Positions 27,809 through 58,839 of a DNA stretch of 64,000 nt are shown piece after piece. A model generated the notes under the pieces. It was not told where the DNA came from. It made no database searches and saw only the letters and a list, made by a program, of their open reading frames with translations. The stretch's first letter is position 1, and every line of letters starts with the position of its first letter. The translations under genes were made by a program, and so were the position numbers. The stretch spans positions 1,408,001 through 1,472,000 of the forward strand of contig CP084167.1 in NCBI GenBank assembly GCA_021513715.1, written 5' to 3'. The stretch comes from Candidatus Heimdallarchaeum endolithica. GTDB lineage: Archaea; Asgardarchaeota; Heimdallarchaeia; Heimdallarchaeales; Heimdallarchaeaceae.

Positions 27809-27918
27809 TAGTACTTCCGCAATAAGTTGACCGATTTCTATAGGTTAAAATTATAGGCGTTCATACTATCATTGACGTGTTCTCAATTCATACTTTTTGA
27901 GATAATTCGGAAGTACTA
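27809..27918 (+). mobile_element. MITE copy 1 (110 bp, 11-bp TIR TAGTACTTCCG, 6-bp TSD TTTTAA)
   Basis: TIRs at both ends; TTTTAA at 27803-27808 and 27919-27924; 107/110 identical to the reverse complement of 44587-44696. Confidence 0.9.
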
Positions 27919-44586: not shown

Positions 44587-44696
44587 TAGTACTTCCGAAT
44601 TATCTCAAAAAGTATGAATTGAGAACACGCCAATGATAGTATAAACGCCTATAATTTTTACCTATAGAAATCGGTCAACTTATTGCGGAAGTACTA
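44587..44696 (-). mobile_element. MITE copy 2 (110 bp, 6-bp TSD AAGGAA)
   Basis: TAGTACTTCCG...CGGAAGTACTA; AAGGAA at 44581-44586 and 44697-44702; inverted relative to copy 1. Confidence 0.9.
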
Positions 44697-56081: not shown

Positions 56082-56620
56082 TTACAATAAAGATTTTAGA
56101 GCTTTTCTATAATCATTAGTAGCTTCTTCAGGCATTGTTCCATTGATGAATATTCCTAGACTAGACTCTACAGCACCAAGAATTTTTAGTGACTGCTTAT
56201 TTCTCTGTGGACTGTGGAGTTTAAAATACATATGATAAATATTAGGACTTTCAGGAAAATTGAAAACTTTTTGATGAAGAGAAAGAGAATAACTTATTTC
56301 TTTACCAAATATTACAAATAAACTTTTAACTAGCTTTGGCAATAAGTTTGCAAAAGATACTAGCTCTTCTTGTCTACTCTCTTCCAATTTACTATAGCAC
56401 CTTTTTGGATAAATATATAGATCATAAGCATATTGAGCTGAAAAAGGAACAACTGCCATCACAAACTCATTTTCAAAAACAACCCTTAAATCAGTTTTTT
56501 TCTCAATTTCTAAATATTTACATATCATGCAAGCATTTTTTTATTTAAAAAATTTCCAATCTTTCTTAGTTCATTTTGAACAGTATGAGGAACAAATGAG
56601 AAAGCATAAATTTGCCCATG
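56082..56620 (-). pseudogene. galT: galT 3' fragment (after the TnpB insertion, with an additional 1-nt deletion)
   Basis: Resumes as H-G-Q-I-Y-A-F; frameshift in the A7 run (T7 at 56536-56542); then C.IC, VPF.A.Y.Y, YH.Y and G.E...G.FIN...PE.A. Confidence 0.88.
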
Positions 56621-56820
56621 AGTTAATTTTTTGTACAATTTTCTCCTACTACGTCAGTGGAAGAATACAAACGCTAAAACAGATGTTTGAGCATACTGAC
56701 ATCATCTAGGAATCGTGGGACGCATAAAGAAGAGTAGAACTCTTCACTCCACGAGTACTAAGTATTCTACCATTATGGTATAATAGTACATAGGTCTATT
56801 TCAACCACTGGTTGAGACCC
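56621..56820 (-). ncRNA. Putative omegaRNA (reRNA) scaffold of TnpB
   Basis: Nested stems 3' of tnpB on the minus strand: TCAACC/GGTTGA, GTACTA/TAGTAC with TACCAT/ATGGTA, TCGTGG/CCACGA with GAAGAGT/ACTCTTC, and TCCTA/TAGGA with GTCAGT/ACTGAC; ends at the element boundary. Confidence 0.7.
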
Positions 56821-58310
56821 CGGAAGGAAGTATAAAAGGTGAGACTAAAGTGTTGTCCAGTAAGATAATCAACTAGTGTAGATGCTCGGGGACGAAAAAG
56901 AAAACGAAGAAACAATTTCCCGATGTTGATTGCACAGGTAAGGTCAGAGTGAAGAGTATAATGGCAATGAGAACAATAAACAAGACCTCTAACAGGTCGA
57001 ATAGTCTTTCGTCCACATTTTGAGCAAAGAGAAGAGGTAAGATATTCCTGTAAGGTGAGGATACGTTCGGGTTCTAACCCATTTAGAAGACACATTCGTC
57101 GAAGAAGAGTAACTATTTGGTAGTAATTCCACGGGTGAACCTTTTTACGAGTAAAACGGGTAGAGGAGTTCTGTGGTCTGTAGTCTTGATTCATTACTTT
57201 TTTTCTTAATTTCGAGTGTACTCCCTTGGGGTAACCAACAACAACGACTAAATTATAATCCTGTGTAAGTTCAACAATATCTTTCCACAACTCATTAATA
57301 AAAGCATATAAATAAGCATGAGAGAGCGTCTGATATCTTTTTCTTAATTTTTTTAATGTTTGATATCCTTTATTGCTTCTTTTGTCTTTACATGTATTCT
57401 TCTTTTTTGCAAGTTTTCGTTGCAATCTTCTTATTTTCTGTTGATAGATATACTTCCTTTTTTTCCATTCTTTCATTTTCCAGAAGAAAATATGATTGGG
57501 AGATATTTTACCTGTTGATGTTAATAACACTCCTGCTCCAGGTATTTTTTCTCCCAGATCTATTCCCAGCACAGCTGGAGGAAGAAGAGAAGGGTCAACT
57601 TTTTTTTTCTTGTAGAGATCTGCTTGAGGAATAATTGTTATCTGAAAATTTACCCACCAACTGTTTTTTTGTGAGTTATATTTTAATTCTAGACTTTTTA
57701 CTTGTCCTTTTCTTATTTCTTTTTGGTGATATTCACTCATTTCTAGTGGTATCCATAGTCTTCGATGTGTTCGTTTTTTTCTTTTTTGTGTGTCTAATGA
57801 GTCTCTTATCCCTACCCAGCAACGAGAAAGAGTGTTTTTCCCTTTAGGCAAATGTTCTATGATAAATCTATTTTTATTGATTAGTTGTTTTCTTGTTCGT
57901 TTTACTGGTGGTAAAATATATCCTTTTTTTCTTTTTCTATTCTTTTTTTTGTTATATCCTTGTTCATAAAGTTGTACTGCTACATCTCTACACTCTTGAA
58001 ATTCATCGTGAGAACAATTAGGAAACTTTTTTTTGAGATCATAGGGTACAACTGTCCTTTTTTTCTTATTTGTTTTCTTTGTTGTTGTTAGTGTTAGTTC
58101 ATCTAACTTGCCTTTATGCACTTTTAGTCTTATCTCTCCTTGTTTGCTTATTTTTCTTATTACTTTTTCTTCTTCTTTTCTTATTATTTTTACATATTCT
58201 TCTATTATTCTAGTATCTCTTCCTGTTATCTTTCTCATTCTATCTTTTTTGAACTTCGTTAATTTTTCTGTTTTTACTCTTACTCTTAATGTTCTCACTA
58301 TTTTCTCCAT
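56796..58310 (-). CDS. tnpB: RNA-guided endonuclease TnpB with rearranged RuvC-II
   Basis: RuvC-I VLGIDLG; RuvC-II position VVVGYP (no Glu); alternative Glu in QEYLTSSLCSKC; CSHC; RuvC-III HSD...AINI. Confidence 0.9.
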   Translation of the reverse strand: MEKIVRTLRVRVKTEKLTKFKKDRMRKITGRDTRIIEEYVKIIRKEEEKVIRKISKQGEIRLKVHKGKLDELTLTTTKKTNKKKRTVVPYDLKKKFPNCSHDEFQECRDVAVQLYEQGYNKKKNRKRKKGYILPPVKRTRKQLINKNRFIIEHLPKGKNTLSRCWVGIRDSLDTQKRKKRTHRRLWIPLEMSEYHQKEIRKGQVKSLELKYNSQKNSWWVNFQITIIPQADLYKKKKVDPSLLPPAVLGIDLGEKIPGAGVLLTSTGKISPNHIFFWKMKEWKKRKYIYQQKIRRLQRKLAKKKNTCKDKRSNKGYQTLKKLRKRYQTLSHAYLYAFINELWKDIVELTQDYNLVVVVGYPKGVHSKLRKKVMNQDYRPQNSSTRFTRKKVHPWNYYQIVTLLRRMCLLNGLEPERILTLQEYLTSSLCSKCGRKTIRPVRGLVYCSHCHYTLHSDLTCAINIGKLFLRFLFRPRASTLVDYLTGQHFSLTFYTSFRGLNQWLK

Positions 58311-58403
58311 TTTCTAATCCTTTTTCTTCTTCACTTTCTTTTCTCTATTTATTAATTAAGCAATTTATTTAAAAACCTAAAGAATTTATACAAAAAATTT
58401 TTT

Positions 58404-58839
58404 CATGGGGGTGAAGAATTGAAGCACCTACATCTTTTCCAAAATTTTCGAACGGAAGAATATATTTTATTTTTTTATCTTCTTTTAGCTGTTTTGTTGC
58501 TTCTATCCATTTTTCAAAAATTGAGAGGATTTCATCTACCTTTAACTCATGAAATTTCTTACCATGGTCAGCACTATAAACTAGAACTTCACATTTACCA
58601 TAAGCACTTTTAGACTTATACAACTGATCCTCTTCTTTGCTCCAATAATCTACCTCTAAAGATAAGCTCGGGAATTTATTATCCAATCGAATAGGTTTAT
58701 TGATAAGGTCTTTGACTTCCTCAGAACCTTTACAAAAAGGGCAGAAATCCTTTTTCCTATCAGGTCTTCTTTGTCTTTTGGGTGCATAAATGATCCATTC
58801 ATCAAAAAAATAATTGTACCTAAGTTCACCCTCTGTCAT
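58404..58839 (-). pseudogene. galT: galT 5' fragment
   Basis: ELRYN, R..RP, CPFC, NKFP, G.CEV..YS..H and FENFG..VGAS..HPH, truncated at the insertion. Confidence 0.92.

Follow-up and report, generated by a model that had tools for sequence, protein, structure and literature searches.

The window analysed here is a 64,000-nucleotide stretch of DNA (positions 1408001–1472000) from the 3,326,783-bp single-contig genome of Candidatus Heimdallarchaeum endolithica, labelled G000. It contains a galT gene split by a compact element that carries tnpB. Judged from its sequence, this is a TnpB/omega-RNA (OMEGA) insertion sequence with predicted RNA-guided nuclease function (Table 1). The element is real and mobile, and near-identical copies are present. 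Removal of one unit joins galT at a single CATG across its HPH motif and regains the reading GASILHPH/GQIY (slash, join). In the complete genome of a sister species of the same genus, Ca. Heimdallarchaeum aukensis (CP084166.1, G001), galT is intact (322 amino acids, aa) and its single CATG is the empty site. The boundaries that a preliminary description had set from the split galT are confirmed by this join and this empty site. A second copy at G000 709114–710904 is 99.2% identical, with 14 differing positions, and ends exactly at the same CATG bounds; rejoining its host gene gave no single long open reading frame (ORF). As assembled, galT would not be restored by excision alone, because its 3′ half has a separate −1 frameshift near 56534–56557. 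It lies within A/T runs and reflects post-insertion decay or an assembly error. The circular genomes of both species have been described, with a count of 11 transposase/integrase families, and the consulted passages of that description contain no account of AT-core ends, the ends reported below (PMC8813620).

Table 1. Features of the element and its host gene in window coordinates; the last row is in G000 coordinates.
Feature	Position	Strand	Remarks
Whole element	56618..58404	−	1,787 bp counting one AT core; from galT join, G001 empty site and second copy
Element termini	First base G58404; last bases ...AACTCAT up to 56618	−	
Left junction, CAT/G	58404..58407	−	C is host, AT (58406-58405) the shared core, G element base 1
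Right junction, C-AT/G	56617..56620	−	C56620 is element, AT (56619-56618) the core, G56617 host
Left arm of imperfect inverted repeat	58384..58404	−	Core motif TTTTTTGTA(T/C)AA at ~+8..+19
Right arm of inverted repeat	56620..56640	+	
Probable archaeal promoter	58362..58380	−	GG-TTTTTAAATA, TATA-like; called from sequence alone
tnpB	56796..58310	−	504 aa
Putative omega-RNA scaffold	56618..56795	−	Three stem-loops; start may fall within tnpB 3′ end
Host flank, predicted guide	56600..56617	−	With preceding CCAT matches empty galT site; predicted from known TnpB/omega-RNA layout (PMC10691335)
galT 5′ part, up to HPH motif	58405..58839	−	PF01087
galT 3′ part	56082..56617	−	PF02744; −1 frameshift found by alignment to intact G001 gene
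Two short serine recombinases	G000 316734-317450 and 405351-406097 (L139, L140)		~75% and 45% identity across family

The element codes only for TnpB and a structured 3′ RNA, as had been described. TnpB is its sole long ORF, and the 184 nt of non-coding sequence 3′ of the gene fold better than shuffles (z=−2.64). This region has blocks conserved across families, five base pairs with compensatory change across seven sequences, and no Rfam match. The protein carries RuvC-I D251, RuvC-III D456 and a zinc finger (C429/C432/C446/C449). RuvC-II is rearranged, with G359-Y-P where Glu is usual and E422 as the alternative; all of these residues are invariant in 25 homologues. PF07282 scores above its cut-off, and NF040570 reaches 58 bits, below its cut-off of 100. 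The structure model matches Cas12f, TnpB and Fanzor2 structures, and the structure search placed the protein no closer to Fanzor than to Cas12f. The marks of an OMEGA system are thus present: a RuvC D-E-D with zinc finger, and a structured RNA abutting the right end. RNA-only miniature elements (minis) without the protein also exist. A GGTTTTTATA motif, similar to the element’s promoter, lies upstream of tnpB in related families. Isolated internal tnpB fragments occur elsewhere in G000, at 231436–231499 (64 bp, 100%) and 139098–139283 (185 bp, 91%), each near a CATG; they are possibly break-repair patches. A subfamily of the 504-aa TnpB is found repeatedly just downstream of a HerA-like ATPase gene (L048, L052, L056, L057, L097), with weak inverted arms and a left region of ~430 bp, and is perhaps an old fixed insertion.

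CATG at both ends (56617–56620 and 58404–58407), continued by an inverted repeat, was reproduced. The repeat matches at 19/24 positions counting CATG and at 16/21 inside the AT core, beyond chance (P=8.5e-5 when compared with random genomic pairs anchored on CATG; 1.9e-3 with AT-rich pairs). The accompanying claim of a 4-bp CATG target-site duplication did not survive comparison with other copies and empty sites. The same 4-mer flanks both sides in just 16 of 30 full G000 elements, so that the flanks are not always CATG and the invariant part is AT. At orthologous sites, an element with junctions CATG/CATA has the empty site CATA, one with junctions GATG/CATG has GAT, and a further element has a right flank AT-ATC that is identical in the empty site. 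Removing a mini with junctions CATA/CATC restores the tnpA reading MPSGYDAN (CCAT/CGG, target CATC), and removing a 414-aa TnpB element with junctions GATG/CATG restores a 139-aa ORF (target GATG). The empty sites assign two bases to the element, the G that follows the left AT and the base that precedes the right AT. Taken with the restored genes, they leave AT alone as shared by both junctions. This AT is the core of a recombination or else a 2-bp duplication that does not vary.

The inverted repeats are subterminal and best conserved 10–19 bp inside the ends. Left and right arms agree in 24–30 of 30 elements at +10..+19, in 6–15 of 30 at +4..+8 and in 19–26 of 30 at the tip (+1..+3). The general plan is AT, 6–7 variable bases and a T-rich motif, often as two tandem ~10-bp units, inverted between the ends. 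This motif is family-specific, and a change at one end is matched at the other (TTTTGCGAA in one family, TTTTCCCCAC in genome G002); inversion is therefore under selection. The flanks are asymmetric: C stands at −1 in 35/35 left ends, against 15% of genomic ATs preceded by C, and the right +1 base is G in 34/42 (A in 6, T in 2); the difference between left C and right G has Fisher p=0.007. Left flanks are mostly family-specific NCAT, with the −2 base varying by family (TCAT, CCAT, RCAT); GAT and AAT also occur. The base preceding the right AT is G throughout the family of a 445-aa TnpB. Element orientation has no relation to GC skew. An automatic inverted-repeat scan was too noisy for distant loci beyond the close families.

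The same end plan is used by several kinds of element: three unrelated TnpB lineages and two protein-less minis in G000, and a fourth lineage in another order. In addition to the 504-aa family, G000 holds ~14 further loci of a 483–486-aa TnpB relative (~52% identity, some partial), three full copies of the unrelated 445-aa TnpB (23% identity) and one 414-aa TnpB. The two RNA-only minis, in the range 350–390 bp, measure ~380 bp (16 copies) and ~355 bp (8 copies), some copies differing by 1–2 bases. G001 has 14 matches to the 504-aa TnpB. Related genera carry the same element types and a 54-bp ends-only copy, a remnant at L213:1501–1556. The plan recurs in family f5 of another order (57 ends in G048, 51 in G054 and 26 in G051; control pattern 0), where it surrounds a 417–429-aa TnpB that is 32% identical to the 414-aa protein. 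Ends-only remnants of ~29–33 bp lie at L266:2800–2830 (G048) and similarly in G053 and G054, with both tips sharing one TTTGTCnGACAA palindrome. Such remnants are probably interior deletions between the end motifs. At L035, L038 and L031 in G001, the element flanks are not adjacent in G000, and one element replaces 717 bp; these are adjacent deletions or rearrangements at element ends. A metagenome scan found one partial copy, and a viral-contig scan for one end gave two single matches and no element.

Outside the host family, relatives of these TnpBs have other surroundings. Relatives of the 445-aa protein end in classical Y1 hairpins, with TCAC/TCAT targets and right ends TGAC/TTAC. In Thorarchaeota and family f3, relatives of the 504-aa protein stand divergent from a ~1,550-aa gene (26 Thorarchaeota loci). 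The model of its N-terminus has Cas1 as best fold matches (E=6e-3, TM ~0.38), and the loci carry the GTTCACTCA motif. That motif has been given for aCas1-TnpB loci, and these are very probably the same loci (PMC10691335). In a quick, midpoint-rooted tree, which gives no order of events, the AT-end TnpB proteins form one clade (SH-aLRT 100), sister to the aCas1-linked TnpBs. The ends were probably swapped, because relatives elsewhere have Y1 hairpins or adjoin aCas1. TnpBs that are unrelated, and that have different end systems elsewhere, thus use one plan here, which points to a common trans-acting factor. In the Thorarchaeota loci (L066, L093, L094 and 23 more), the ~1,550-aa protein upstream of tnpB has a PD-(D/E)xK-like motif and no Pfam match. 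A short stretch downstream of the RNA end there, GAAACAGGTC, duplicates the hairpin of the tnpB promoter, as though the guide were aimed at its own promoter.

No mover was found in cis. No recurring transposase adjoins tnpB in more than 100 loci, no serine TnpA of the IS607 type accompanies it in 80+ loci, and in G000 no transposase lies between two such ends. The earlier view of a non-autonomous element moved in trans stands, and the TnpB–transposon pairing proposed with it has no partner gene found. Complete G001 gave no match for Y1, IS607 TnpA, IS110, IS630, tyrosine recombinase or aCas1. IS630 is likewise absent from G000, and IS110 transposase from G000, G048 and G054. The only tyrosine integrase in the two genomes is in G000, and the host-family genomes have no conserved tyrosine recombinase. 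Ten basic hypothetical ORFs yielded no further recombinase, and no candidate transposase common to all carriers across the two orders was found. The sole Y1 gene of G000 (925129–925521) was rejected as an autonomous partner. It is part of an ordinary hairpin-ended IS605 (L114, 923900–925900; Y1 tnpA and a 408-aa tnpB), and its tnpA is itself split by an AT-core mini. The DDE families of G000 are IS481, IS5-like, IS6-like and ISH3-like, all with ends unrelated to the AT-core ends; the first three make variable target duplications of ~8–15 bp. The ISH3-like transposase at 1884947–1886029, the autonomous copy of its family, was set aside, having its own ends and a patchy distribution. Two 108-bp minis of this family with AGTACTTCCG inverted ends lie in the window (27810–27917 and 44588–44695), among ~20 genome-wide.

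Apart from two syntenic serine recombinases of ~240–250 aa (resolvase and recombinase domains, catalytic Ser motif intact), no site-specific recombinase was found in both complete genomes. The pair occurs in 28/30 host-family genomes and, with the same query, in 0/52 others of the class; genomes of kin are not independent samples, and the counts do not serve as statistical tests. One of the two lacks the catalytic motif in G003 and G005, both genomes without these TnpBs. The pair possibly stands in for XerA. Extra copies in relatives were checked as partners and dismissed, none lying beside tnpB or within AT-core ends.

The reading we favour, to which we give an even chance, is conservative core recombination in trans at an invariant AT, as in IS607. 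An enzyme encoded elsewhere would bind the tandem ~10-bp motifs, 7–20 bp inside each end and in inverted orientation. The element would be excised as a circle with the junction right arm–AT–left arm, the host being resealed with one AT. The circle would then integrate at AT sites, with the symmetric CATG preferred. TnpB and its omega-RNA, with the right flank as guide and ~(N)CAT in the left flank as predicted target-adjacent motif (TAM), would cut the empty site and so restore or retain the element. Such guarding would account for a left flank stricter than the right and for a −2 base that differs by family. All lineages here end in AT, though Y1-type relatives of the 445-aa TnpB end in TGAC/TTAC; a recombinase that needs a matching core predicts this convergence. 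The enzyme would use serine chemistry. The host serine recombinase pair is the best named candidate for the mover, in the host family only, and a doubtful one; otherwise an IS607-type or unrecognised recombinase from elsewhere may act. A wider proposal is tentative: in Heimdallarchaeia, several unrelated TnpB lineages (Y1-hairpin, aCas1-linked and other) may have shed transposases of their own and converged on inverted ends with an AT core. These would hijack a chromosomal recombinase, either the short serine pair or an unrecognised class-wide enzyme, for near-random scarless integration at CATG.

Several observations weigh against core recombination. IS607 TnpA has no match over cut-off in either complete genome. 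IS607 elements in genomes of the host family have different ends; those of related genomes were rejected as partners for their other ends and other TnpB. In these elements (L115–L124) the serine TnpA is paired with a very divergent, long TnpB-like ORF. The chromosome has no native junction-like (dif-like) site, and targets have no arm-like flanks. In family f5, which has amplified this plan to 26–57 ends per genome, a search for the serine pair found nothing, and the f5 carriers G051, G052, G053 and G057 have no resolvase match (three are incomplete assemblies). The pair can therefore be at most a local answer. A DDE enzyme with an invariant 2-bp duplication would also give identical junctions. 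Of the two movers named in the preliminary description, a DDE transposase and a recombinase, the recombinase is nevertheless now the better supported.

DDE transposition in trans, by cut-and-paste or copy-out, would duplicate AT within CATG, with the arms as two-part terminal inverted repeats (tip and inner binding site). IS630/Tc1 elements target TA in CTAG, of which AT in CATG would be the mirror. Inverted ends, a palindromic target preference and the moderately conserved tips suit such a mechanism, and DDE-linked TnpBs with inverted ends, including solo copies moved in trans, have been reported (PMC10691335). The reading is unlikely even so. The two complete genomes have no IS630, the DDE families present have the unrelated ends and variable duplications described above, no duplication varying with the site is seen here, and elements of the 445-aa family have different terminal bases at left and right (G versus C). 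Still less probable is movement by general host activity, such as a repair enzyme, a topoisomerase or RNA-level processing of paired ends, with TnpB helping to choose sites. It would account for the lack of a transposase common to all carriers, for the convergence of at least four TnpB lineages on one plan, and for a −2 base that follows the TnpB/RNA family and not any transposase gene. Base-precise junctions and co-varying inverted motifs, however, suggest a dedicated symmetric protein. The second frameshift in the split galT argues against removal by splicing, and the cleavage site of TnpB is well away from the TAM.

Two readings tied to known TnpB partners are very improbable. In one, a Y1 (HUH) TnpA moves an IS1341-type element with target NCAT and right end TCAT/TGAT, and the apparent repeats are weak hairpins. 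The junction outcome would be identical, the tetranucleotide is mostly family-specific, some arms hold short palindromes, and the 445-aa TnpB has true Y1-type elements as its relatives. This element has no stable end hairpin (z=+1.83 and −0.29), however, and other families have non-palindromic inverted arms. No guide tetranucleotide fits across families; the right flank prefers G and there is no strand bias. Y1 is absent from G001, from 25 genomes of genus g4 and from G048, G054, G051 and G057, and no autonomous Y1 TnpA members with hairpin ends were found. The Y1 reading is already largely refuted. The other mover, no more credible, is a diverged Cas1 (aCas1) integrase, the partner of the sister clade of these TnpBs. 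The Thorarchaeota gene with its Cas1-like N-terminus and GTTCACTCA motif, together with the sister position of the AT-end clade, speaks for it. The aCas1 profile, however, finds 0/31 host-family genomes, G000 among them, and two or three unrelated TnpB lineages share ends that differ from those of the aCas1 loci.

Among known systems, the IS607 group (IS607, IS1535, ISC1926 and CboIStron) is alike in many respects. IS607 ends and target share an invariant GG without duplication, and short direct motifs and imperfect inverted repeats lie near the ends (PMC6188088). CboIStron requires a strict dinucleotide and prefers 4 nt identical to the TAM of its TnpB, which retains the element by cutting empty sites (PMC10690162). 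The present element shares the invariant dinucleotide at junctions and target, the lack of a variable duplication, the imperfect inverted repeat with short tandem motifs, and a 4-nt target preference matching the predicted TAM. It differs in its AT core, its palindromic target preference (CATG), arms at nearly equal offset at both ends, and the absence of tnpA from every copy and of IS607 TnpA from two complete host genomes. The earlier statement that the ends are unlike both IS200/605 and IS607 is therefore right for the first, as no Y1 hairpins are present, and overstated for the second. The element works like an IS607 derivative and is not classed as one, because of its AT core and because searches yielded no cognate TnpA.

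With IS1341/PATE elements it shares a solo tnpB with a 3′ omega-RNA and RNA-only minis, and insertion is mostly 3′ of a family-specific NCAT; the inverted arms in place of end hairpins, the right-flank preference and the absence of Y1 from most carriers are different. The IS1111 group of IS110 has subterminal inverted repeats and a short core. Repeats a few bases inside the ends and no duplication are common to both; the IS110 transposase is missing from the four genomes named above, and target specificity here is only ~4 bp. The Asgard aCas1-TnpB loci (Cas1H-Asgard groups, PMC10691335) have a sister TnpB clade (28–33% identity), the same rearranged RuvC-II and ACTCA at the scaffold end. The host family differs in having no aCas1 gene, other ends and multi-copy insertions dispersed among host genes. 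In general, there is precedent for solo TnpBs mobilised in trans and for TnpBs flanked by inverted ends (PMC10691335, PMC10711439). The searchable literature, which excludes subscription papers and supplements, gave no description of the AT-core plan, its multi-lineage use or complete genomes without a known partner.

These findings raise a sharp question: dozens of elements have moved in complete genomes where all the known partners of TnpB are missing, and some enzyme must have moved them. With short cis ends (~25 bp; an ends-only copy measures 54 bp) and a target of only AT/CATG, the mover would be a compact scarless integrase. The TnpB itself, with its rearranged RuvC and predicted (N)CAT TAM, adds another candidate nuclease. 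Fanzors also have a rearranged RuvC-II, a likeness to the 504-aa TnpB. DDE-associated TnpBs (IS630-linked DDE-6) and Fanzor1/Fanzor2* in transposons with terminal inverted repeats likewise place a TnpB-type nuclease between inverted ends; here there is no true terminal repeat, no variable duplication and no DDE partner. The case documents, among the archaea most closely related to eukaryotes, a change in how TnpB is mobilised; such a change has been proposed for Fanzors.

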